Positions 19,202 to 60,748 of a stretch of 64,000 nucleotides of DNA are shown piece by piece. Numbering within the stretch: position 1 is the first letter of the stretch; the number at the start of each line of letters is the position of its first letter. A program made the position numbers and the translations under genes. Below the pieces are notes generated by a model that searched no databases, had not been told where the DNA came from, and saw only the letters and a list, made by a program, of their open reading frames with translations. The DNA is from Nitrospina sp. LS_NOB (GTDB lineage Bacteria; Nitrospinota; Nitrospinia; Nitrospinales; VA-1): positions 324,875 through 388,874 of the forward strand of contig LFLA01000021.1 of NCBI GenBank assembly GCA_001542995.1. The letters run 5' to 3'.

Positions 19202-19767
19202 CCGCCAGCGTGATGCTGGCCTCAATGTGCAATAACCCCCGTTTAACCACCGATGCACACAGATCGACACGGATAAAACATTCCTCTCCTCTCATGAGGG
19301 GAGGCTAGGTGGGGTGTGGATTTTCCTTTCGTCATCCTGAGGCTCTCAAAGGATCATGCCTGTCATCCTGTTATCCCTCTCCCCTCCGAGGGAGAGGCAA
19401 GGTGAGGGGGGGCATTTTGTTTACCCCCTCTTTCTTAAAGTACCCCTTCGGGGCATGAAAGTTAATGAGGGGATATCACAAGGGCGGAGGTGATTGACCT
19501 CAAGAGGGTTTTTGTCTGTCATCCTGAGCCACTTGCCGTGGGGGCGATACTGTCATCCTTGAGGAGCCGCAGGCAACGAAGGATCTCGTCATTGCGAACG
19601 ACTAAAAGGAGTGTGGCAATCCAGAGAGAATTTTTAGCGTTTTTCTCGTCATCCTGAGGCTTGATACCCCCTCCTTAAAACATCATGCCCTGCAAGGGTG
19701 GCCCCTTGATCTTTGACAATATAGTTTTGGATGTCAGAAACTTTTAATTTATTGCCGTTTTGAACCT
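19198..19767. repeat. 570-bp non-coding block made almost entirely of modular repeats
   Basis: R6 hairpin gccagcgtgatgctggc 19204..19220. cctctcccctccgagggagagg hairpin about 19374-19398. R1 unit 19441..19479. Five GTCATCCTGAG-type modules (19330, 19362, 19517, 19551, 19648). 71-bp R3 copy 19588..19658. Confidence 0.75.
19588..19658 (+). repeat. R3 71-bp repeat, copy 1
   Basis: gtcattgcgaacgactaaaaggagtgtggcaatccagagagaatttttagcgtttttctcgtcatcctgag. Differs from the 20586..20656 copy at 5 positions by my alignment. Confidence 0.85.
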
Positions 19768-20471: not shown

Positions 20472-20585
20472 ATGGACCTCACTCACTCTCCCCCTAATAG
20501 AATTAGAATACAATTTCAAAAAGAAAAGGCCCAGGCCAAAAAACCCAGGCCATTTCAAATCAAAGAAGAACTGAGGGGGGTTGTC

Positions 20586-20656
20586 GTCATTGCGAACGAC
20601 CGGAGGGAGTGCGGCAATCCAGAGAGAATTTTTAGCGTTTTTCTCGTCATCCTGAG
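20586..20656 (+). repeat. R3 71-bp repeat, copy 2
   Basis: gtcattgcgaacgaccggagggagtgcggcaatccagagagaatttttagcgtttttctcgtcatcctgag. Direct repeat of 19588..19658. Confidence 0.85.
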
Positions 20657-50524: not shown

Positions 50525-51049
50525 TTAGATAGTGGTTATAGAATTCAAGATTTGGGATTCAGAACTCTCACCATAATTTGTCAGAATCGCCTGAACTCTG
50601 GATTCGATCAAAGCATCCAGGTTTGTGCTGGATCGCAGGAGCGAGTTTAAATCTTTTTGCCGGTTTACCCCATCACTCAAGAATTCGACGATACTGCTGG
50701 TAGAAATCCCCGATCGGTTAAAAATGGTTTGCAGTTGGGTCAAGAGTTCGTCCTGCCCCTCTCCGGCCCTGGCCCGGTCCGCAATCAATTCCGTAGCTGA
50801 GAGTTCTCCGTTTTTGTCAGAGTCGATGGAGTCAAAATTGTCCAGCAGGTTCTGACCGCTGCTGGTCGCGTCTATTTTTTTCTGGATTTCGTCGACATCT
50901 AATCCGCCTGAGTGGTTGCTGTCATCTTTGGGGAACTGCTGAAAAATCCGCTGGGTGAAACTGTTAAGAATGGTTGAACCGAGTCCTCCACTGCCTCCGA
51001 TCATTGGTCGCCCTCCACCAAAAGGATGTTTAAAATTGGGCCATTCCAT
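50525..51049 (-). CDS. EF-hand calcium-binding motif protein
   Basis: Canonical loop DSDKNGELSATEL and a second DSNHSGGLDVDEI. Gly-rich N-terminus. Confidence 0.65.
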   Translation of the reverse strand: MEWPNFKHPFGGGRPMIGGSGGLGSTILNSFTQRIFQQFPKDDSNHSGGLDVDEIQKKIDATSSGQNLLDNFDSIDSDKNGELSATELIADRARAGEGQDELLTQLQTIFNRSGISTSSIVEFLSDGVNRQKDLNSLLRSSTNLDALIESRVQAILTNYGESSESQILNSITTI

Positions 51050-51202
51050 GCCCTATACATCCTTAACGGCATCCGTGAAAAAGGCCATAAGCTTTTATTT
51101 GAAAAGGGTTATAGCAATCGCAAAATCAAGGGTTTTCCCACCCCCTATAGCAGGGGCAGGCAGATTGCCATAGCTTAATCTCGGGCCCAATCGGCCTTCG
51201 GC

Positions 51203-52219
51203 TTAGTGAGCCGAGTACTCAAACATGCGTTCTACGCATTGGAGGGAGCGCTGCTGGGTTTCCGGGTCGAGGGTGATGGTGTTTTCGGGACCGGGGTTTT
51301 CGAGGACGTTGAGTATATCTTCCAAAGAATTGGACTTCATATATTTGCAGAGTGTACAACTTCCGGCAAAGGTTTTTTGCGGGAACTCGGATTGCAGAAC
51401 ACCGGTCAACCCGCACTCTGTCACCAGAAAAAAGGAGTCGCCGTTGGATTCCCTGACATGGTTGAGCATCTGGCTAGTGCTTCCCACATAATCGGCCTTG
51501 CCCACCACTGAAGAACTGCATTCGGGGTGAACGAGAATTTCCACACCCTCAAAGTTTCTCCGCACCTGGTCTATACTTTCCGGCTGATATTCTTCATGAA
51601 CGTAGCAGGTGCCATCCCAGAGTTGGATATCCTTATTCAGGCCCTTGGATTTGAAATGGTTGATCACATTTTCACCCATGAGCCGGTCGGGCAGGAAATA
51701 AATCTTGTTATTGGGAATTTTTTCAATGATAGCGTAAACATTCGAAGAGGTGACGCACACATCACACTGGGCTTTCACCTCGGCGGTCGTGTTGATGTAG
51801 CAGACGAATGTGTGATCGGGAAACTCTTTGCGGAGCCTTATAACATCTTCCGCCGTTATGCCATCGGCCAGGGAGCAACCGCCATTGGGATTGGGATCAA
51901 GCACAGTTTTTTGAGGATTGAGAATCTTGGCGGTCTCTGCCATAAAACGAACCGCTGCGAACACAATAACATCGGCATTGGATTCCTTAGCTTTTTTCGA
52001 CAGGCCATAAGAGTCGCCGGTAAAATCGGCGACACTGTAATAAATTTGCGGCGCGACATAATTATGCACGAGGATGATGGCATTTTTTTCGCGCTTGAGC
52101 TCTTCAATCTTTCTGATGGTGGGGAGCAACAGCTCGCAATTTTCCTGAGTGAACCGGCAAATCGGATTGCCCACCTGAATATCTTTAAGCTTTTCGTATA
52201 ACTGTTCTGCGGTAACCAT
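51203..52219 (-). CDS. nadA: quinolinate synthase
   Basis: ILVHNYV...DFTGDS, FMAETAKIL, HPEC..., conserved Cys ligand contexts (CYVHEE, TECGL). Confidence 0.93.
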   Translation of the reverse strand: MVTAEQLYEKLKDIQVGNPICRFTQENCELLLPTIRKIEELKREKNAIILVHNYVAPQIYYSVADFTGDSYGLSKKAKESNADVIVFAAVRFMAETAKILNPQKTVLDPNPNGGCSLADGITAEDVIRLRKEFPDHTFVCYINTTAEVKAQCDVCVTSSNVYAIIEKIPNNKIYFLPDRLMGENVINHFKSKGLNKDIQLWDGTCYVHEEYQPESIDQVRRNFEGVEILVHPECSSSVVGKADYVGSTSQMLNHVRESNGDSFFLVTECGLTGVLQSEFPQKTFAGSCTLCKYMKSNSLEDILNVLENPGPENTITLDPETQQRSLQCVERMFEYSAH

Positions 52220-52223
52220 TTTT

Positions 52224-52568
52224 CTAACCCGGCGGCCAGTTCAAGGCGCGACCGCCTAAAAGATGATAATGAATATGATACACCGACTGCCCGGCCCCGG
52301 CACCACAATTGACCACCAGCCGAAACCCTGATTTATCGAGTCCCCTCTCCTTCGCCAGTTGGTTTGCCACACTGATCACCGAACCCATCAACGTATGATC
52401 CTTCTCCTCGACATCCAGCAAGGTAGCCTGATGGATTCGGGGGATGATCAGGATATGCGTAGGAGCTTGCGGGTTGATATCATTAATCGCGAACAAGGTG
52501 TCCGATTCATAAACCTTATCTGAAGGGGTAGTCCCCTCGCTGATTTTGCAGAACAGGCAATCACTCAT
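52224..52568 (-). CDS. HIT-family (histidine triad) nucleotide hydrolase
   Basis: MSDCLFCKI..., triad GQSVYHIHYHLLGG. ATG 52568 overlaps the pafA-like stop by 8 nt (ATGAGTGA). Confidence 0.88.
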   Translation of the reverse strand: MSDCLFCKISEGTTPSDKVYESDTLFAINDINPQAPTHILIIPRIHQATLLDVEEKDHTLMGSVISVANQLAKERGLDKSGFRLVVNCGAGAGQSVYHIHYHLLGGRALNWPPG

Positions 52569-54063
52569 AAGATTTTTTTCCGTGTCGCTCCGGGTTTCCC
52601 ATATCCTGTTTATTTTCCTGGTGGGGGAGAGAATCAAACTGCTCAAGATGCTCTATGATTTCTTCTTTATAGGAGATGAATGGATCGAGCATCAGAAACG
52701 GTTCGTCAGTTTTGCTCAGGCGAAATCCGATCCAGTCTATGAGATAACCCATGTGAGAATGCTGGTTCATGAGCCTTTTAACAAGCTCTCCCCGGCCATG
52801 CGCCCGGGTTCCTCTTGGAGGATTGACTTTTGAGAAGTCGACGGCCTCATCGGTGGTTTTGCGGTAACCATCGCCACTGGCTTCCAATCCCCAGAACAGA
52901 CCGGTTTCCTTATTCAGGTTATGGTATTCCAGATCCAGGCTTTTGAGCCAGGGGTCGTGCCATTCCAGGTTTTCTTCGTTTCTAAACTCGTTGAGCATCC
53001 AATACTTGCTGGCCCAGTCCACTCGGCCGATCACCGCTTCCGGTCCTTTAGGTAAATCGGTCAAGACCGATTCCCAGCCCTCCAGAATCCAGTCGGTCTC
53101 CCGGTTTGTCCCAGCCAGATGTTCCTTACAGGTATTTAAAATATCCCATTGTAGTTCCAAAGCGGTGGAATATTTTCCCGAAGCCAGTTTCACCTCCCAT
53201 TTAAAATCCGGATCGCGAGAAATAGAACGCATGGCAAAAACCGAGTCCGCAAGAATCCATTCCCGTTTGGCGACCCCCAACTGCATGATTTCCAACATGA
53301 GGGTTGTGGTTCCCATCTTCATGGCGGTGGCAAACTCACTCATCGTCGAGTCACCGACCAAAAGATGAATGCGCCGGTATTTGCTCGGGTCCGACAACGG
53401 CTCGTCGCGGGTGTTGACAATCGCCCGGTTATATTGCACCCACCGGTAAAATTCATTGGGAATGTGGTCAGCCCTTTGTGACAGCTGAAAGTTCACCTCA
53501 TCGTCCTGATTTTCATAAGGTGTGATGCCATCCCAATCCTGAAACGGGTGGGGATCGCAGGAACCGATGCGGCCCGCACCGCAATAAATCAGTCGAGTAG
53601 TTAAAAAGGAAGAAAGCAGTTTCAGGTTGTCGCGCTCATCGAAAGGGAATCCTCTACCGACCAGATAATTCTCGTGGCAGCCGAACGTCGCGCTGGTTTC
53701 AAGATCCACATTGTTCTTGATGAACGAAACATGATCGGCCCAGCCCAACTCCTCCACCGCTTCCTGAATCAGCGTGTCGCCGGCGCGGTCAAAAGTCACC
53801 AGGTCAACAAGATTGGAACATTCCGGAGAGGCGTATTCTAAATGCCCCATGTCGAGATACAAGCGCCCACCGTTAAGCAGAAACCCGCCGTTACCGGGGG
53901 GCTCATCGTTAGCGCGGTAGTGAAGGTCCAGCACACCATGATTTTTTGAGAAAATATGGTTCTTGACCTTGTTGGCCACTTCCATCGAGTCGAGAGGGAA
54001 CTCCGCATCATTTTTGATCAGCAGGCCGTATTCCGTTTCGATGCCGTAGATTCGTTTTTTCAT
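52561..54063 (-). CDS. pafA: Pup/UBact ligase PafA homologue
   Basis: MKKRIYGIETEYG..., short N-terminal region then LNGGRLYLDMGHLEYASPEC (as in PafA [22 protein letters not shown]). Lacks the long acidic insertion seen in the Dop-like paralogue. CHENYLV. Confidence 0.85.
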   Translation of the reverse strand: MKKRIYGIETEYGLLIKNDAEFPLDSMEVANKVKNHIFSKNHGVLDLHYRANDEPPGNGGFLLNGGRLYLDMGHLEYASPECSNLVDLVTFDRAGDTLIQEAVEELGWADHVSFIKNNVDLETSATFGCHENYLVGRGFPFDERDNLKLLSSFLTTRLIYCGAGRIGSCDPHPFQDWDGITPYENQDDEVNFQLSQRADHIPNEFYRWVQYNRAIVNTRDEPLSDPSKYRRIHLLVGDSTMSEFATAMKMGTTTLMLEIMQLGVAKREWILADSVFAMRSISRDPDFKWEVKLASGKYSTALELQWDILNTCKEHLAGTNRETDWILEGWESVLTDLPKGPEAVIGRVDWASKYWMLNEFRNEENLEWHDPWLKSLDLEYHNLNKETGLFWGLEASGDGYRKTTDEAVDFSKVNPPRGTRAHGRGELVKRLMNQHSHMGYLIDWIGFRLSKTDEPFLMLDPFISYKEEIIEHLEQFDSLPHQENKQDMGNPERHGKKSYE

Positions 54064-54097
54064 TTCAGAGCGTCTTGTTCGTCAGAGAGAATCATTG

Positions 54098-54211
54098 CTA
54101 GTTTACCCCTTTACCCCTTCGGGGCATGAGACAAATGAAGAAATATCACAGGCTCACGAAGGCTGAGGAAAAATATCACGACCACCGGTTGCTCACTGGC
54201 ACCACGCCTAG
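54098..54211. repeat. 106-bp repeat insert (two R1-type units) bracketed by CTAG ... CTAG between prcB and pafA
   Basis: CTAG 54098-54101. ttaccccttcggggcatgagacaaatgaagaaatatcac (54110..54148). aggctcacgaaggctgaggaaaaatatcacg (54149..54180). CTAG 54208-54211 is the prcB stop. Confidence 0.7.
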
Positions 54212-55011
54212 TGGCCGCGTTTTAAAGAGGACTTGCATAGTTTCGCCAGATCCTTATCGTTCAAAAACTGGTACCCCGCCTCGGTGACCAATGCCACGGT
54301 AGGAAATATTTCATCTTCCGGACGGGCTTTGCCGGTTGCAGAATCAAACTGCGCCGCAGTCTGCAAAAGCCGAATGGCCAAGGTGACCGCATCGCTTTCC
54401 GATCTTTCTACCAGGGGCTTATCTCCCCAGAGATCTTCATGTTCCAGAATTCCCCGAATGGTCGGCGAACCAGAGCCGGTCGCGGTATGGGTACTGATCC
54501 TGAAATCGGCTCCCAACATATCGTAAAAATGTATCGCCGCCTTTTTACATTTCAAGTCGTAAGTAGCAAATATTGGACTCACCGCTCCCAGCCCCTGCAC
54601 CGCCATCCCGACATTCTCTTTCAGCAGTTTTGATAAGGCGCGGATTTTCCCTTCCACACTCATGGTTTGCATCTGTGACCGTCGGTAGTATTCAAAATTA
54701 TGCGTGAGAACCCGTGCCATCTCGAAAGCCGTAGCAGGAACCCCGGCAATCGCCATGAGCGTATAATCGTCGATGGGAATGACCTTGTCGCAACGTTCAT
54801 ACATGATACTGTTGCCCGCCGTGGCCCGTCGGTCACCGGCAACAATCACGCCATCCTTAAAGTGGAAGGCGAGAACCGTAGTGCCCTGGGTTACTGTAAT
54901 GCCGCTTGGCGCCTGCGAAGAATCGATGCGAGCATGCCAGCGATAGCCGGATTTTTCCAGTAGCTCGAAAAAATCTCCGGGCGAAGTATGAGGATCTGTT
55001 TGAAAACTCAT
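54208..55011 (-). CDS. prcB: 20S proteasome beta subunit (bacterial type, with propeptide)
   Basis: Propeptide then ..TQG|TTVLAFHFKDGVIVAGDRRATAGNSI (Thr1 after Gly), closely parallel to actinobacterial PrcB. ATG overlaps the stop of the tag ORF (ATGA). Confidence 0.88.
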   Translation of the reverse strand: MSFQTDPHTSPGDFFELLEKSGYRWHARIDSSQAPSGITVTQGTTVLAFHFKDGVIVAGDRRATAGNSIMYERCDKVIPIDDYTLMAIAGVPATAFEMARVLTHNFEYYRRSQMQTMSVEGKIRALSKLLKENVGMAVQGLGAVSPIFATYDLKCKKAAIHFYDMLGADFRISTHTATGSGSPTIRGILEHEDLWGDKPLVERSESDAVTLAIRLLQTAAQFDSATGKARPEDEIFPTVALVTEAGYQFLNDKDLAKLCKSSLKRGH

Positions 55012-55184
55012 TGACCGGTTCTCTGTTTGTATTTTTCAGATTGTTTCGGGTCCACCTTTTTCATCCGCTTCAAAAGATTATCCTTTCCCGGCCGTGAAGG
55101 TTCCGGGCTGGAAGGGCCGGAATCATCGCGATCTGGACTGGTTTCTTTTTTTTCTTCCCGTCTCAGGGGATCATTCATTTCCAT
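55008..55184 (-). CDS. Pup-like small protein modifier (UBact-type), 58 aa, C-terminal ...KYKQRTGQ
   Basis: AAGGAG 8 nt upstream of ATG 55184. MEMNDPLRREEKKETSPDRDDSGPSSPEPSRPGKDNLLKRMKKVDPKQSEKYKQRTGQ*. Disordered charged N-terminal half, helical basic C-terminal half, terminal Gly-Gln. Sits between the proteasome subunit genes. Confidence 0.75.
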   Translation of the reverse strand: MEMNDPLRREEKKETSPDRDDSGPSSPEPSRPGKDNLLKRMKKVDPKQSEKYKQRTGQ

Positions 55185-55234
55185 GGGATCAACTCCTTTT
55201 GTTGCCAGGCCGTTTCTGCCTTATCACCCGGGCA

Positions 55235-55969
55235 TTAACCGACCGATGATTTTAACTTACCTATCTCTTCTTTCGTAAGCGCTCTGTAAATGGCTCTTCG
55301 CTCCACCTTTCCAGATAAAACAGCAGCCTCAAGATACCATTGATCAAAAGCCTCTTTCAAAGTCTTGGGTATATTTTCATCGTCTTCTTCCTGCTTTCTA
55401 CTTTCATCCCAAAGGCGGCAGGTTTCCTTTAAAGCTTTATTCAGAGGAAACGTCGCAAAGGGCGTGTCCTGAATTTTCTTCTGCACCTCCTCCATAACTT
55501 TTTCATTACCGGCGATAACGGTTCCATTTTTAAATGTTTCCCAATGCCCATCATAGTTCACACGGAAAAAGTGGGGATGGCCATCACCGTCCAGTTCAGC
55601 AAGAAGAAGGCGGATGATATAAGGAGCCCGTTGGATTTCCTCAAAATTCTGTTTGAGTGCGGGAGCGATGCCAAACTGTAGCAGCCTTGCCAATGTCACA
55701 TCTTGAGCCGAACGGTTGAATCCTTCCAGATGCGCCATATCCAAAAGCGTCATGCGCAACCGCTCCACATCAGCAGGGTGGCCCACGCCGCCCAGGGCGA
55801 TGCGGTCATAGACTTCGAATATCTTGCCCGGCTGGGGGGCAAACCCCATAATCAGCACCCCTTCATTGAAAGGAACCGACAACACCGGCTGGCCCATTTT
55901 CAGCTTTTCCTGAACATAACTGTGGCGGGTGGAAACCGCTTCCATCCAGCGATACGGCTCTTCAAACAT
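55235..55969 (-). CDS. prcA: 20S proteasome alpha subunit (bacterial type)
   Basis: ..QPVLSVPFNEGVLIMGFAPQPGKIFEVYDRIALGGVGHPADVERLR...YIIRLLLAELDGDG..FFRVNYDGHW parallels the actinobacterial PrcA layout. No Thr1-type active site. Confidence 0.8.
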   Translation of the reverse strand: MFEEPYRWMEAVSTRHSYVQEKLKMGQPVLSVPFNEGVLIMGFAPQPGKIFEVYDRIALGGVGHPADVERLRMTLLDMAHLEGFNRSAQDVTLARLLQFGIAPALKQNFEEIQRAPYIIRLLLAELDGDGHPHFFRVNYDGHWETFKNGTVIAGNEKVMEEVQKKIQDTPFATFPLNKALKETCRLWDESRKQEEDDENIPKTLKEAFDQWYLEAAVLSGKVERRAIYRALTKEEIGKLKSSVG

Positions 55970-56114
55970 TTCCCCCTCTTCCTTTTACGTTTTGAACCAA
56001 TTTGTGGAAGCCGAGAAACTTTTAAATCTCTTCACTCTTCCTCTGTTGTTCTAAACCAAGTTATCCCTTAAAGCTGGGGATATTTTTAAATCCTTCAAAT
56101 TTCCTATTTTGTCT

Positions 56115-57575
56115 TCAAACCAATTGTTTGCTGGAGTTAAGAACCTCTTCAACCTCTTCGGAGCTAATGACTCCGGTCAAATCAAGAATCTCTCCGTTCA
56201 TAAACTCAACTCCGGTCCAATGAATACTTTTTATTTTTTCCGCTCCTTGAGCCACCGCCTGCCCTCTTATCTGAGCGCGGGTTCCTACCGGGGGCGACTC
56301 AACAGCCCGGGCGATTTCTTCTTCACTGAGCAGGGAAAAAACATCTCCCTCCTGCTGCAATCCCCGATACAATCCGCGATCAGGGTCCAGATTATGGTAT
56401 TCCAAATCCAGGCTCTTGAGCAAGGGGTCATCCCAGCCAATGCCCTCGGACTGCATGAACCCGGCAAATAGTTTTTCCTTGATCGCCCAGTCAATGCGAT
56501 CCGAAAGTTTTTCCGGACTGTGCCGAAGTTCATCCAGTGTCTTTTTCCATTCCGCAAGAATCCAGTCCCACTCGCGATCCTTTCCGGCAAAGGCTTTTTC
56601 CACCACTTCCAGATACGCTTCCTGAATCTCAAGAGCCGTGATAGTACCACCAGTCTTGCGACGTAAAACTGCAGTTTTGTCGAGAGACACTCTCAACACA
56701 TCGGCCACTGGGTCCGCCAATTCCAAATGGAGAAGTTTCTCCCCACGGGCGATCAGATTGAGAACCAGCGATGTACTCCCCACCTTCAGGGCCGTGGCAT
56801 AAGCGGACATATTGGCATCGCCGAGAATTAAATGCAAACGCCGATACCGACTGCTCACCGCATGCGGTTCGTCCCGGGTATTGATGAGGGGACGTTTCGT
56901 CATGGTCTCAATGCTTAAAACTGTCTCGATAAAGTCGGACCGCTGGGCCAACTGCAATCCTTGAAAATCACTAGCGCTTTCCGATCCCACTTTTCCTGCC
57001 CCGGCATACAACTGGCGCGTCACCAGAAAAGGAGCCAGCCCTTTTACCACATCTTCAAAGGGAGTTGCTCTGGGGATGAGATAGTTATCATGAGTTCCAT
57101 AACTATGGCCGCTGTAATCAGTATTATTTTTGAACACCTGAAGGGGTTTGCCCTCCAGCTCGCGGTTGCGAATGGCCGCGCATTCGGCGACAATCCGCTC
57201 GCCCGCCACATCATGTGCCACCAGAGATAACACCGACCGGCATTCCGGGGTGCTGTATTCCGGATGAGTATGATCATTATAAAATCGGGCACCATTTGTC
57301 AAAACCCGGTCGCACTTCATATCTAAATAAGAATAAGGCCTTTTACGATCTTCGGCGCAAAAGGCATCTTCTTCCTCATCCTGAGCCAAAGACCCCACCC
57401 GAAACCCACGCATATCCAGATGCGAGTTCTCCTGCGAGTAGGCCCATTTGCCAAAAACACTTTTGCGCTCGCAGGCCTTTAAAAGTTTCATGGACTCTTC
57501 AACCGGGTCGGAATTTTCCATATCTTCCCGGACTATCCCATACTCGGTCTCCATACCCAGGAGAGAAACACTCAT
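56115..57575 (-). CDS. dop: deamidase/depupylase Dop homologue
   Basis: MSVSLLGMETEYGI..., long acidic insertion (LDMRGFRVGSLAQDEEEDAFCAEDRKRPYSYLD) before LTNGARFYNDHTHPEYSTPEC, like the Dop loop and DHAHPEYSAPEC. ATG overlaps the mpa stop (ATGA). Confidence 0.85.
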   Translation of the reverse strand: MSVSLLGMETEYGIVREDMENSDPVEESMKLLKACERKSVFGKWAYSQENSHLDMRGFRVGSLAQDEEEDAFCAEDRKRPYSYLDMKCDRVLTNGARFYNDHTHPEYSTPECRSVLSLVAHDVAGERIVAECAAIRNRELEGKPLQVFKNNTDYSGHSYGTHDNYLIPRATPFEDVVKGLAPFLVTRQLYAGAGKVGSESASDFQGLQLAQRSDFIETVLSIETMTKRPLINTRDEPHAVSSRYRRLHLILGDANMSAYATALKVGSTSLVLNLIARGEKLLHLELADPVADVLRVSLDKTAVLRRKTGGTITALEIQEAYLEVVEKAFAGKDREWDWILAEWKKTLDELRHSPEKLSDRIDWAIKEKLFAGFMQSEGIGWDDPLLKSLDLEYHNLDPDRGLYRGLQQEGDVFSLLSEEEIARAVESPPVGTRAQIRGQAVAQGAEKIKSIHWTGVEFMNGEILDLTGVISSEEVEEVLNSSKQLV

Positions 57576-59188
57576 ATGATAGACCTGCGAATCGTATTTT
57601 CGGTTGCCTTATCCGATTCGCTGGGCTTTCTTACCCGCACAACATTTTTTGATTCCATATCCAAAAGCTGAAGCCAGTCTTCCATATTGGATTCGGCGGG
57701 AAGCAGGTTGCCTTCCTCAAATTCAGCCTCCAGTGAAACAATAAGATCGTCCACCGTCATACACAGCGTTTCACCCTGAATCGCCCGTTCAATGGCTCTC
57801 TCTTTAGCGCGTTTCATGATTCCCTCAATGACCGCGCCGGAAATGAAATCGTTCCAATACAGTTTCTTCGTGCCACCGCTTCTTAAAGTCAACACCAGCA
57901 CTTCCTGTTTCGAACTGCGGTCAAACAGACGATCCAGAAAGGGTTCAGCCATGGCGTCAAAATCTTCATGTTCGCGGGGAAGCCCTTCTTTCAGATAAAC
58001 ACGCAGGATGGCTTTAGACTCTTCGCGGTTGGGACGCGACACTTTGATCTTCCTGTCAATTCTTCCGGGCCGGATGACAGCCGGGTCGATCAGGTCGGGC
58101 CGGTTGGTCGCCAGAATCACCACCGTTTCGCGAAGGGACTGGATGCCATCCATCTCCGCGCAAAACATGGGGACCACCGTGTTGCTGATGTTCGATCCGC
58201 GCCACGCCTGCCGGATTCCCAAAATTGACTCCGCTTCATCTATAAAAATGAAAGGGATCTGACCTTTTTCTTTATAGTCCCGGGCTTTCTTAAAAATTTC
58301 ACGGATTTTACGTTCCGATTCCCCCAGCCACATATTGAGGATCTCCGGTCCTTTGACATGAATGAACCGGCCCTGAAGTTCGGAATCTTCCTGCTCGGAA
58401 AGTTTGCGGATCACTTCGGTGAGAATCGCTTTTCCTATGAGAGTTTTTCCGCAACCCGGAGGACCATAAAACAAAAATCCTTTGGGCACCTGATATTCCA
58501 TCTGGCTCAGAATTTCTTTGTGCAGGAGCGGATATTCGAGGACTTTGCGCACCTCTTCTTTTACTTTTTCTTGTCCGCCCACTTGTGACCATTCCACATG
58601 TTCATAATCGTCTTCAACCAGAGTGCGAGACTCGCGTTTAGAAAGTTTGCCTAAAATAACTCTTTGGTTACTGTCGAGAAAAATTTCTTCCCCCTCTTTC
58701 AGCCCATCTTCATCCAGACCATCTCGGACCAAAACAATCGTCTCGGTATTGCCAGTCGCCGCCTGCACCAGCCATTGCCCGCCAGCAAGCTTTCCGGAAA
58801 TTTTTGCAAGTGGCCCCTGAGTGGGAAAAGGTAGCAGTGCAATCACCACAAATCCTTCATTCAGCGCCACCTGATCACCGGTTTTCAATCCCTCATTTTC
58901 CGTAAGTTCCGGGACGACCGCAGCCTGGTATTCCGTGCCTCCGGAAACCAGACGCACCAGACCGTCCTCCCCCTGGCCCAGAATCGTGCCGATCCGATGG
59001 GCGGGAGACTTTAACTTTTCAATGGCTTCCTCCAAGGTCTTGATTTTCAATGCATACTGCTGGGCAGACTGCTGGGCCTGGAACAGAGCATCCCTAAGAT
59101 CAAGAATCTTTTCCTGCAATTGGGGTCGATCCTGGGTTTCATTTAAAACCTGGTCGATCAACTCTACGATATGGGTCTGGTCTCCCAT
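57572..59188 (-). CDS. mpa: proteasome-associated AAA+ ATPase (Mpa/ARC homologue)
   Basis: N-terminal coiled coil (LQEKILDLRDALFQAQQSAQQYALKIKTLEEAIEKL), OB-like region, Walker A GPPGCGKT, Walker B FIFIDEAES, second region of homology. Confidence 0.9.
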   Translation of the reverse strand: MGDQTHIVELIDQVLNETQDRPQLQEKILDLRDALFQAQQSAQQYALKIKTLEEAIEKLKSPAHRIGTILGQGEDGLVRLVSGGTEYQAAVVPELTENEGLKTGDQVALNEGFVVIALLPFPTQGPLAKISGKLAGGQWLVQAATGNTETIVLVRDGLDEDGLKEGEEIFLDSNQRVILGKLSKRESRTLVEDDYEHVEWSQVGGQEKVKEEVRKVLEYPLLHKEILSQMEYQVPKGFLFYGPPGCGKTLIGKAILTEVIRKLSEQEDSELQGRFIHVKGPEILNMWLGESERKIREIFKKARDYKEKGQIPFIFIDEAESILGIRQAWRGSNISNTVVPMFCAEMDGIQSLRETVVILATNRPDLIDPAVIRPGRIDRKIKVSRPNREESKAILRVYLKEGLPREHEDFDAMAEPFLDRLFDRSSKQEVLVLTLRSGGTKKLYWNDFISGAVIEGIMKRAKERAIERAIQGETLCMTVDDLIVSLEAEFEEGNLLPAESNMEDWLQLLDMESKNVVRVRKPSESDKATENTIRRSII

Positions 59189-59437
59189 GAATAAGTCCTT
59201 TATTTTGGTTGTGAACTCAATTGTATGAACAAAAAATTTTATAAATCAAGTCAATTTTCTCAAAGGTTTAGTAGAGAAAACCTTGTCATTATATTAGGAT
59301 GAAGGCTTCTATTGATTATTATCCTGAAAAGCTTTTCGCTCAACTTTTTTGTATTCCTACAGAGCCCGGCAAAACCCCAGGTGGCGCAAGACCACCTTTA
59401 ACACGAAAGTGATTCCTGACAACAAGTTTTTGATTCT

Positions 59438-60748
59438 ATGACCTTTGCGAACAACAAAACCCCTATCGAAAAATGCATCATCAGTTTCAGCCATAACAAA
59501 TATTCCACCCGTAAAGAAGCTGATACAGTGAGCCTTGCCAAGGCAGAGCGTGAAATTGCCGCCAGGAAAAATGGCATCAGCCATCTTCTTCTAAGAGCTG
59601 AGGATGATGACATCGATCGACTGAAATTTCTTTTTTTGATCCGGGGAATTCCTATCATGTGTTACGCGCTGGGGAACCTGCTGAACTCCAGCTTGCGCGA
59701 AATCGTGGTCGTCGGCTCTGAGGAAGTCAAAAAAGTTATGGATCGCTTCCTCGACATTGTTGGCACCTGCGGAAAAACCATTCGGTTTGTCCGGGAAGAT
59801 GCTCAACACCTCAACCTGGTTCACACCATGAATCTGGGCCGGGAGTTGCTTTCCCCTTCACCCGACGAACTGGTTCTGTTCCAACCCGGTGACCTGCCTT
59901 TCCTATACGACCTGGAAAAAGTCTTGCACTTTCCAGACAACAAAAAATATAACCTGGTGCTCTGGCTGAACTCCCGGCAAACGATGTTCCCGGATTTTGC
60001 AAAGAATCCGGAGAGCGAGTTCGTCAAGCGCAATTACCATTACCGCTCTTTTAGCGAAAATGAAGATAGCCTGCTGGATCTCAAAGAACCCAATTTATAT
60101 CCCATTAATTTTGCAATGATGGATTCGGATATCATTGACCACCTGCACTCTTCCCGCAAAGATGGACAAATAATTCACGCGGGCATCCAAGTTGCCTTGC
60201 AAAAACCTTTACGCTTACTCAAGGTTCTGCCTTATGTCATGGACCATCTGTTGACGTTCCGGACGAATGTAAACCGCATCAGGCCCGGCGACCGGTATGA
60301 TTTCGGCATGTCCCGAAAAAATTTCCATAAAGGCATCTCCCGCTTGCTCAATACTCCTTTGACCACCACATTGCATGACGACCCGGCTTTCGTTTCCGAT
60401 GTCGATGCACTAGAAGATTGGGAAGATTTTGAGTCTCTCACCCATCATGCGGAAACAACCCATGGCCGGGAGGGACTGGAGACCATCCACCCGTTTGGAA
60501 AATCCCTGACCCAATTTCGTGAAGAGGGCATGCCTCAGTTGAAAACAGAGATTCCCATGTACCGGGATTTCCCTTCATACCTCAACTCTATTTATGAAAC
60601 GCTCGAGATGGGTTATGTACCCTTTGACAGGGACAACCAATACATCTCGCCCAATGCGAACTTGAAAGAAGTGGAAATCGCATACCGCTGGTATAAACAA
60701 AAATGTGCCCTATTGAAACAACCTCATGAAAACCGGCAACAGGTCTGA
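59438..60748 (+). CDS. hypothetical protein with MobA-like nucleotidyltransferase (GT-A) N-terminal region
   Basis: IRGIPIMCYALGNLLNSSLREIVVVGSEEV...LFQPGDLPFL resembles NTP-transferase family cores. The C-terminal 250 aa are unassigned. Start uncertain. Confidence 0.4.
   Translation: MTFANNKTPIEKCIISFSHNKYSTRKEADTVSLAKAEREIAARKNGISHLLLRAEDDDIDRLKFLFLIRGIPIMCYALGNLLNSSLREIVVVGSEEVKKVMDRFLDIVGTCGKTIRFVREDAQHLNLVHTMNLGRELLSPSPDELVLFQPGDLPFLYDLEKVLHFPDNKKYNLVLWLNSRQTMFPDFAKNPESEFVKRNYHYRSFSENEDSLLDLKEPNLYPINFAMMDSDIIDHLHSSRKDGQIIHAGIQVALQKPLRLLKVLPYVMDHLLTFRTNVNRIRPGDRYDFGMSRKNFHKGISRLLNTPLTTTLHDDPAFVSDVDALEDWEDFESLTHHAETTHGREGLETIHPFGKSLTQFREEGMPQLKTEIPMYRDFPSYLNSIYETLEMGYVPFDRDNQYISPNANLKEVEIAYRWYKQKCALLKQPHENRQQV

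Follow-up and report, generated by a model that had tools for sequence, protein, structure and literature searches.

The closest described counterparts of the locus analyzed here are the Pup-proteasome system of actinobacteria and the UBact-proteasome system, which is the diderm counterpart of the former and whose tag owes its name, UBact, to Lehmann et al. 2017 (as cited in PMC5751360). The actinobacterial gene order, mpa-dop-pup-prcB-prcA, with pafA downstream of prcA as well, sometimes with unrelated open reading frames (ORFs) between the two, is the one that we refer to as canonical, whichever tag gene it contains (PMC3511204). Here, we describe positions 52224-59188 of a 64,000-nt stretch of contig LFLA01000021.1 (Nitrospina sp. 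LS_NOB), hereafter the window, for which a preliminary description had pointed to a complete tagging and proteasome locus of unusual gene order in a diderm bacterium. We conclude that this locus is, with little doubt, the UBact-proteasome system of a Nitrospinales bacterium, in a derived gene order and with a later insertion of a 106-nt repeat. Nitrospinae are reportedly among the five phyla in which Lehmann and colleagues first found UBact.

A UBact-proteasome locus in the Nitrospinota

The identity of the system follows from its tag, which scores 71.8 bits with the Pfam family PF20513 (cut-off 27.8) and 73.8 bits with the NCBIfam model NF033388 (cut-off 35), both of which describe UBact; a Pfam scan at E<=0.01 returned UBact only, and no match to the Pup model. 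Its C-terminus, KYKQRTGQ, conforms to the R-[T/S]-G-[E/Q] ending of the short UBact proteins and has TGQ, not the GG[E/Q] of Pup. Relatives of the locus were collected in a scan of one genome per species, which returned 246 relatives, and the best 80 of these, all of them Nitrospinota, were carried forward; the window proteins were mapped by tblastn onto 86 related loci, and gene orders were counted over the 80 species genomes. Throughout the 86 Nitrospinota loci, RTGQ is invariant, the last 22 residues of UBact are nearly so, and every tag ends in glutamine. Outside this phylum, in Gemmatimonadota and Armatimonadota-like loci, the tag ends in glutamate (RTGE/RSGE; L087:6948-7139, L091:9558-9755), which implies that phyla differ in whether the tag needs to be deamidated; that every Nitrospinota UBact ends in glutamine fits an obligatory deamidase step in the Nitrospinota.

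All six partners of such a system, comprising the tag, the ligase, the deamidase, the unfoldase, and both 20S subunits, are encoded on one strand within 52561-59188. Likewise, the arrangement of the seven minus-strand ORFs as mpa-dop-prcA-tag-prcB-pafA-HIT, which we read from the ORF list and from profile searches, agrees in its coordinates with the preliminary description (Table 1). The diderm background described there holds as well: TonB adjoins the locus, and the relatives all belong to the Nitrospinota, a diderm phylum. As far as sequence comparison can tell, the host is a Nitrospinales bacterium of this phylum; the UBact proteins of two closed Nitrospinales chromosomes are identical to that of the window, and the proteins encoded next to them are 94-99% identical to their window counterparts.

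Database homologs of both the tag and the PafA-like protein come from Nitrospina, Nitrospinaceae, and Nitrospinota, several of them bearing the names UBact, 'Pup--protein ligase', and 'PafA2 family protein', and public Nitrospinota proteins that are 81-88% identical to the tag are called 'ubiquitin-like protein UBact'. The system is already described and annotated in public Nitrospinota genomes, and the locus does not represent a novel type of proteasome cluster in diderms; the novelty that had been implied is not borne out, since the tag belongs to a described family.

Gene order across the Nitrospinota

The canonical order, mpa-dop-UBact-prcB-prcA-pafA, was found in 44 of the 80 Nitrospinota species genomes, including those of Nitrospina sp. 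and Ca. Nitromaritima, and also in one Gemmatimonadota and one Armatimonadota-like locus. The order seen in the window, mpa-dop-prcA-UBact-prcB-pafA, is shared by 26 species genomes, while eight have the order mpa-dop-prcB2-prcA-UBact-prcB-pafA, with a second beta subunit gene, prcB2, and two could not be classified. Both non-canonical types form one clade, with 100% bootstrap support in a PrcB tree as well as in a tree of concatenated Mpa, Dop, and PafA sequences, and in both trees the canonical genomes are not monophyletic, the rearranged clade being nested among them. Since a fully supported clade lies within a paraphyletic canonical set, the window order appears to be derived and confined to one Nitrospinota subclade. 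Judging from these trees, it is a clade-specific rearrangement and not a property of diderms. A reading of the order as a trait of diderm systems does not agree with the canonical order of most Nitrospinota and of the Gemmatimonadota and Armatimonadota-like loci. The contrast with the actinobacterial order mpa-dop-pup-prcB-prcA stands, although the statement that pafA lies elsewhere in actinobacteria was imprecise, as it is found downstream of prcA there too (PMC3511204).

Some loci of the comparison are incomplete. At L072 and L083, both counted as canonical, mpa-dop-UBact-prcB is present, and prcA and pafA were not found within ~7 kb downstream or in ~2 kb of downstream sequence, respectively; at L075, UBact is the last gene of the locus. 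Either the loci are split or the assemblies may be at fault.

In the genomes with two beta genes (L020, L025, L026, L027, L032, L033, L035, and L085), prcB2 lies between dop and prcA (e.g., L026:6323-7123). It encodes a divergent beta subunit that is 53-56% identical to PrcB of the window and scores 120.6 bits with TIGR03690, as compared with 157.7 bits for the regular copy. Thr1, Asp17, and Lys33 are intact in all five full-length prcB2 copies, and in L032 and L035 the matches to prcB2 are broken across reading frames. The locus L029, which has the window order, contains a 208-nt dop-prcA spacer that is a prcB2 deletion scar: it aligns with the first ~127 and the last ~78 nt of the prcB2 region of L026, and the initial 33 residues of the prcB2 product are still encoded in it (tblastn E ~8e-7). 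In addition, the spacer of L024 matches the 3' end of the prcB2 region. The frame-split matches, the scar in L029, and the match in L024 all point to loss of prcB2.

The simplest route to the window order would start from an ancestral Nitrospinota locus of canonical order. In the ancestor of the rearranged clade, the UBact-prcB segment would have been placed after prcA, most simply by duplication; the first UBact copy would then have been lost, with the second beta gene, prcB2, left at the old position, and repeated deletions of prcB2 would have led to the window order as the end state. Several observations tell against this route. It had to be reconstructed from sister lineages because the window subclade retains no detectable prcB2 remnant: a search of the dop-prcA spacer of the window for remnants of prcB2 or UBact detected none. 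Moreover, just 3% of the bootstrap replicates of the PrcB tree unite prcB2 with the prcB of the same clade, and prcB2 may be either an old positional copy or an import from another Nitrospinota lineage.

Junctions, spacers, and a repeat insertion

The overlaps reported earlier were read from the sequence as described, with ATGA (4 nt) at both mpa/dop and UBact/prcB, and ATGAGTGA (8 nt) at pafA/HIT. All loci of the gene-order clade to which the window belongs, and most loci of canonical order, show the 4-nt overlap of mpa and dop, and all loci but one show that of UBact and prcB, likewise 4 nt; by their distribution, these two tight junctions are old features that are nearly phylum-wide. In contrast, the 8-nt pafA/HIT overlap occurs in the window's clade only, the canonical-order relatives having gaps of 29-277 nt. 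The prcB/prcA and prcA/pafA junctions of canonical loci mostly range between a gap of a few nucleotides and an overlap of 4-8 nt. The rearrangement gave rise to looser junctions, namely a dop-prcA spacer of 20-244 nt (145 nt in the window, 83-85 nt in the compared relatives) and a prcA-UBact spacer of 39-54 nt (50 nt in the window). A third junction loosened by the rearrangement, the prcB-pafA spacer, is mostly 8-19 nt long; in the window it measures 144 nt, as against a mode of 19 nt in the relatives of the same order, and it is likewise 19 nt in the closest relatives. It is only from such spacing that we infer an operon structure and translational coupling.

The dop-prcA spacer contains a Shine-Dalgarno-like sequence, GGAAGAGGGGG, before the prcA start. 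Together with the 3' end of dop (55970-56135), it includes three imperfect direct copies of a ~62-nt unit that begin with A(A/C)(A/T)TTGGTT, and the stop context with which dop ends in the closest relatives (TTGGTTTAG) is found in the second copy. The ~62-nt repeat at 55970-56135 was missed by Tandem Repeats Finder.

The 106-bp repeat insert that had been noted between prcB and pafA was found again, 106 nt long at 54102-54207, as a member of a dispersed repeat. It is flanked by a duplicated CTAG (54208-54211 and 54098-54101), the upstream copy of which contains the stop codon TAG of prcB. We counted 10 occurrences of the repeat motif, TCATGCCCnnnnGGGGTA, in the window, where 0.36 would be expected, and its copies have GTGATAT...TCATGCCCCGAAGGGGTA in common. 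The core, GTGATAT(N~20)TC[A/G]TGCCCnnnnGGGTA, is sometimes found in tandem or inverted pairs and mostly just past stop codons, and the same repeat family is present in the prcB-pafA spacer of L018 and L021. We rejected the CTAG target duplication as a general trait of the family, as only two of the ten window copies (32404 and 54112) have CTAG on both sides. We read the 106-nt element as a later insertion of a small repeat that is spread through the genome. Folding of the 144-nt prcB-pafA spacer is no better than that of shuffled sequences (z = +1.76), giving no sign of a structured RNA or terminator. Elsewhere in the window, a 78-nt direct repeat of 91% identity lies beside copies of the small repeat, at 19581-19658 and 20579-20656, 998 nt apart.

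Assignment of the two ligase-family paralogs

Both paralogs of the Pup ligase family contain the GxExE motif, the catalytic Asp, and NTRDEP. As described earlier, 56115-57575 encodes an extra loop before NGxRxYxDH that is missing from 52561-54063; in Dop, the loop is an insertion of ~40 residues. The distance from ETEY to NGxR is 81 residues in the former paralog and 51 residues in the latter, compared with 75 for Dop of Acidothermus and 37 for PafA of Corynebacterium. The loop of the Dop-like protein aligns with the Dop loop of 4B0R/5LRT, and the protein as a whole scores better with Dop than with PafA whether NCBIfam models (TIGR03688 432.7 bits, PafA 352.7 bits), solved structures (326.7 and 244.4 bits), or actinobacterial core profiles (472.4 and 399.5 bits, ~73 bits more for Dop) are used. 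Positions that discriminate Dop from PafA have been experimentally defined (Hecht et al. 2020, PMC7947786, Table 1). The Dop-like protein has Dop-type residues at S27, H95, S101-T102-P103, F208, E210, E216, and K220, has no insertion after the catalytic Asp, and deviates from the Dop type at positions 93 (N), 214 (S), and 218 (M). Its sequence makes the assignment of 56115-57575 as Dop a solid one.

The assignment of 52561-54063 as PafA, which had been based on the missing loop, is reasonable and draws on further evidence, with a phylogenetic placement that is weakly resolved. The protein lacks the Dop loop, although its 51 residues between ETEY and NGxR are 14 more than in Corynebacterium PafA. 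It matches the NCBIfam PafA model TIGR03686 over its full length with 317.5 bits and Dop partially with 299.1 bits; only with Corynebacterium PafA does it align from end to end. PafA-type residues occupy seven of the discriminating positions (A37, F54, L63, G66, A72, H188, and D439), while position 74 is a proline, as in Dop. Our best inference is that this gene encodes the UBact ligase (PafA), on the grounds of its position in the locus, its diagnostic residues, and the need for a ligase.

The two paralogs also resemble each other at the DNA level, with 76% identity over 78 nt (pafA 52885-52962 and dop 56358-56435) in the conserved W.DP.LKSLDLEYHNL region. We ascribe this match to paralogy, not to a mobile repeat.

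Unfoldase, 20S subunits, and a predicted pathway

Mpa combines an N-terminal coiled-coil-like region with two OB domains and an AAA module. Its C-terminus, at 57572-57590, reads RRSII; RS[IV]I is kept in nearly all Nitrospinota, while the corresponding ends are SRTV in Gemmatimonadota and SRVI in the Armatimonadota-like locus. PrcA of the window is 60-71% identical to the products of the prcA genes that lie after prcB in canonical-order Nitrospinota. PrcB has a 43-residue propeptide and a predicted mature N-terminus at Thr44 (G43|T44-T-V, G|TTVLAF). Inactivity of the subunit genes, raised earlier as an objection, finds no support in PrcB: the [G/A]-TTV context of Thr1, Asp17 (VAGDRR), and Lys33 (CDKV) are intact in all 85 aligned relatives.

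By homology with the Pup system, UBact would be made with a C-terminal glutamine, which the Dop homolog would deamidate to glutamate; the same enzyme might also strip the tag from substrates. The PafA homolog would then use ATP to activate the glutamate side chain and join UBact to substrate lysines, and the Mpa-like AAA+ ring would bind the tag, unfold the substrate, and feed it to the 20S particle of PrcA and PrcB, the latter having been activated by removal of its 43-residue propeptide to expose Thr1.

Alternative readings of the locus

A number of points speak against reading the locus as a working UBact-proteasome system with a PafA-type ligase. All five enzymes and subunits remain under the equivalog cut-offs that NCBI has set for actinobacteria: 380.7 bits over nearly the full length of Mpa with TIGR03689 (pup_AAA; cut-off 504.75), 432.7 with TIGR03688 (492.3), 317.5 with TIGR03686 (551.3), 162.8 with TIGR03690 (191.9), and 59.1 over residues 13-238 of PrcA with TIGR03691 (20S_bact_alpha; 139.05). 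Function is therefore extrapolated over a large distance, and the scores confirm that the components represent a distinct, distant branch of the system. A search of the accessible literature found no biochemical study of UBact conjugation, no experimental evidence for UBact tagging, and no study of a Nitrospina proteasome. Mycobacterial Mpa carries a C-terminal GQYL docking motif with a penultimate tyrosine, and a tyrosine-containing GQYL/HbYX-like motif is absent from the Mpa C-terminus of the window and of the related mpa genes; to judge by these termini, the docking of Mpa on the 20S particle may differ from that of mycobacterial Mpa. The PafA-like protein has a Dop-like spacing, D-M-G-H, without the one-residue insertion beside the catalytic Asp, and its alpha-loop, HIPNEFYRWVQYNR, is unlike that of either enzyme, with V and Q in place of two threonines that PafA and Dop share and that matter for PafA activity. 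The signature of this alpha-loop (HIPNEFYRWVQYNRAIVNTRDEP in the window protein) is common to other UBact-type PafA proteins, including one from Gemmatimonadota.

This VQ-for-TT loop also belongs to the case for a rival reading that we consider rather unlikely: 52561-54063 would not be a PafA ortholog but the outcome of a separate duplication within the UBact lineage, acting as a second hydrolase, a regulator, or an independently evolved ligase. In a neighbor-joining tree of 130 family members, UBact-type PafA stands next to UBact-type Dop on a short branch and not with Corynebacterium PafA, so that both UBact-type clades group together. However, the deep branches of this tree are short and its sampling is biased toward the query; four-cluster, profile, and quartet tests were run after it. 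The four-cluster distance bootstrap gave PafA orthology in 83-87% of replicates and independent duplication in 13-17%, and the approximate maximum-likelihood quartets divided in the same direction (40 of 60 against 20 of 60). Actinobacterial PafA and Dop are at almost equal distance from the PafA-like protein: core profiles favor PafA over Dop by only 5 bits for this protein and favor Dop for the Gemmatimonadota relative, and solved Dop chains score slightly above PafA chains (235.7 versus 223.4 bits). The objection raised earlier, that both paralogs might fall into one clade, is neither sustained nor firmly dismissed by these placement tests. An AlphaFold model of the PafA-like protein, built on a 31-sequence alignment, was too poor to bear on the question, with a mean pLDDT of 62.3 and values <50 in the active-site and alpha-loop segments. 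What favors orthology, besides the four-cluster and quartet results, is that the Dop loop is missing, that the seven positions of Hecht et al. 2020 are of the PafA type, and that the full-length alignment, including the C-terminal domain, is obtained only with PafA. In addition, in canonical loci the gene follows the 20S genes, as pafA does in actinobacteria, and a tag with a conserved C-terminal Gln/Glu needs a ligase, for which it is the sole candidate in the locus. Finally, the Dop and PafA clusters of Hecht et al. 2020, which included Nitrospirae sequences, were separate and well supported (PMC7947786).

Two further explanations, which concern the locus as a whole, fare worse than a separate duplication. 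It is very improbable that an actinobacterial Pup-proteasome cluster was acquired recently by horizontal transfer and shuffled on arrival, even though Nitrospirae and other phyla have been proposed to owe their pupylation machinery to horizontal transfer from Actinobacteria (PMC3511204; PMC7947786): the tag is UBact and not Pup, no component reaches an actinobacterial equivalog cut-off, the GC content of the locus (0.49-0.50) equals that of its surroundings, and the locus together with orf436, HIT, and nadA is syntenic in dozens of Nitrospinota species, with identities that follow the clade structure. A transfer, if there was one, would be ancient and older than the diversification of the phylum. 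It seems to us next to impossible that faulty assembly or binning of metagenome-derived sequence produced the order. Although most of the related records are metagenome-assembled genomes, the order recurs in the independently assembled genomes of 26 species, closed chromosomes of 2.3-2.9 Mb among them, and it is phylogenetically coherent, with conserved junction spacers.

Flanking genes and other features

The features of the locus are listed in Table 1. The start codon of HIT is the ATG at 52568, for which relatives call the same 114-aa product, and a TTG at 52646 is an upstream alternative. Under all three gene orders, HIT and nadA are 1-9 nt apart in most Nitrospinota loci; nadA was not found in the Gemmatimonadota and Armatimonadota-like loci. 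It may be co-transcribed with the locus and probably lies outside the tagging function. A 436-aa ORF (59438-60748, plus strand) that is divergent from mpa keeps this position almost throughout the Nitrospinota loci, whichever of the three orders they have; its sole Pfam signal is a sub-threshold match to a MobA-like NTP transferase (19.6 bits).

The hexamers upstream of mpa are only a candidate for an operon promoter. Promoter-like and terminator-like sites in 51000-59700 are not more frequent than in shuffled sequence and say little on the boundaries of the operon, and an Rfam scan of the whole window gave zero matches at gathering thresholds.

Members of the Pup ligase family also occur apart from proteasomes in the material that we compared. 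L089:8001-11391, from a different genome of the same sample, has no proteasome genes and encodes a dop-like gene, a 75-aa ORF ending in QPGGE (Pup-like, without a Pfam match), and a pafA-like gene. L092:8001-15993 and L090:8001-9491 contain orphan genes of this family whose surroundings lack both a tag gene and proteasome genes; one orphan adjoins a Cas5d/Cas7/Cas3 (type I-C-like) cluster, and the alpha-loop and NTRDEP of the orphans are degenerate.

Table 1. Features of the UBact-proteasome locus and its flanks, in window coordinates
Feature	Position	Strand	Evidence
mpa/arc-like AAA+ ATPase, 538 aa	57572-59188	minus	Prot_ATP_ID_OB_N, Prot_ATP_ID_OB_C, AAA (Pfam)
dop-like deamidase/depupylase homolog, 486 aa	56115-57575	minus	Pup_ligase 509 bits (Pfam); best NCBIfam match Dop
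dop-prcA spacer, 145 nt	55970-56114	minus	sequence read, comparison with relatives
prcA, 20S proteasome alpha subunit, 244 aa	55235-55969	minus	Pfam Proteasome 31.8 bits
UBact tag, 58 aa	55008-55184	minus	PF20513, NF033388
prcB, 20S proteasome beta subunit, 267 aa	54208-55011	minus	Pfam Proteasome 103.4 bits, TIGR03690 162.8 bits
REP/MITE-like repeat insertion with CTAG flanks	54098-54211 (insert 54102-54207)	minus	repeat count, CTAG duplication
pafA-like paralog, 500 aa, presumed UBact ligase	52561-54063	minus	Pup_ligase 418.8 bits (Pfam); best NCBIfam match PafA
HIT-family (HinT-like) protein, 114 aa	52224-52568	minus	Pfam HIT 83.4 bits
nadA (quinolinate synthase)	51203-52219	minus	Pfam NadA 356 bits; gap of 4 nt to HIT, which lies upstream
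promoter-like hexamers upstream of mpa: TTGAGA-16-TAAAAT, TTGATT-18-TACAAT	59220-59263	minus	consensus scan; weak evidence
repeat motif starts	5134, 8100, 8130, 19441, 19683, 20683, 20769, 24157, 32404, 54112		window positions

Implications and comparison with known systems

The value of this analysis lies mainly in the correct filing of the locus as a known UBact-proteasome system, in a lineage-specific order for which intermediates are found in sister genomes. The Nitrospinota series that leads from the canonical order to a two-beta intermediate, to a deletion scar, and to the window order illustrates how a coupled proteasome operon can be reorganized. Nitrospina species are cultured marine nitrite oxidizers, and cultured Nitrospina could yield experimental evidence for UBact tagging. 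The ligase activity of the UBact-type 'PafA' should be tested rather than assumed, given that this protein is nearly equidistant from PafA and Dop and has an alpha-loop of its own.

A more far-reaching idea, which we offer as speculative and rather improbable, is that the rearrangement was more than neutral: the clade would have passed through a proteasome with two different active beta subunits encoded in one operon, which eight genomes would still keep, expression would have become uncoupled, and the active site of the UBact ligase would be distinct. If so, the loss of prcB2, the new spacers before prcA and UBact, and the recurrent repeats before pafA could uncouple the expression of the alpha subunit and the ligase from that of the tag and the beta subunit, and the ligase of the UBact system, with W-[V/I]-Q for T-T-R in its alpha-loop, may use an active site unlike those of PafA and Dop.

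The 20S proteasome of Rhodococcus erythropolis is composed of two alpha-type and two beta-type subunits. The eight sister genomes of the window clade encode two beta genes as well, prcB2 and prcB; however, both share an operon with only one alpha gene, and prcB2 is decaying in some of the genomes. The window itself has one beta gene.

With the described UBact system, the window shares the tag models, the R-T-G-Q end, and a tag gene that immediately precedes prcB and is clustered with mpa, dop, pafA, and prcA. It differs in its local order, with prcA ahead of UBact-prcB, and in the repeat before pafA.

In comparison with the mpa-dop-pup-prcB-prcA...pafA arrangement of Mycobacterium tuberculosis, the same six functional parts are present. 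Dop and PafA belong to the same carboxylate-amine ligase superfamily as in the actinobacterial Pup system, an Mpa-type AAA+ ATPase with a double OB domain and a Thr1 beta subunit with a propeptide are found in both, and the tag ends in glutamine, as does mycobacterial Pup, which implies deamidation before ligation. In contrast to the actinobacterial system, the tag of the window is UBact and not Pup, ending in TGQ instead of GGQ and matching no Pup model, prcA precedes the tag gene, the PafA-like protein has a different alpha-loop, and the host is a diderm.

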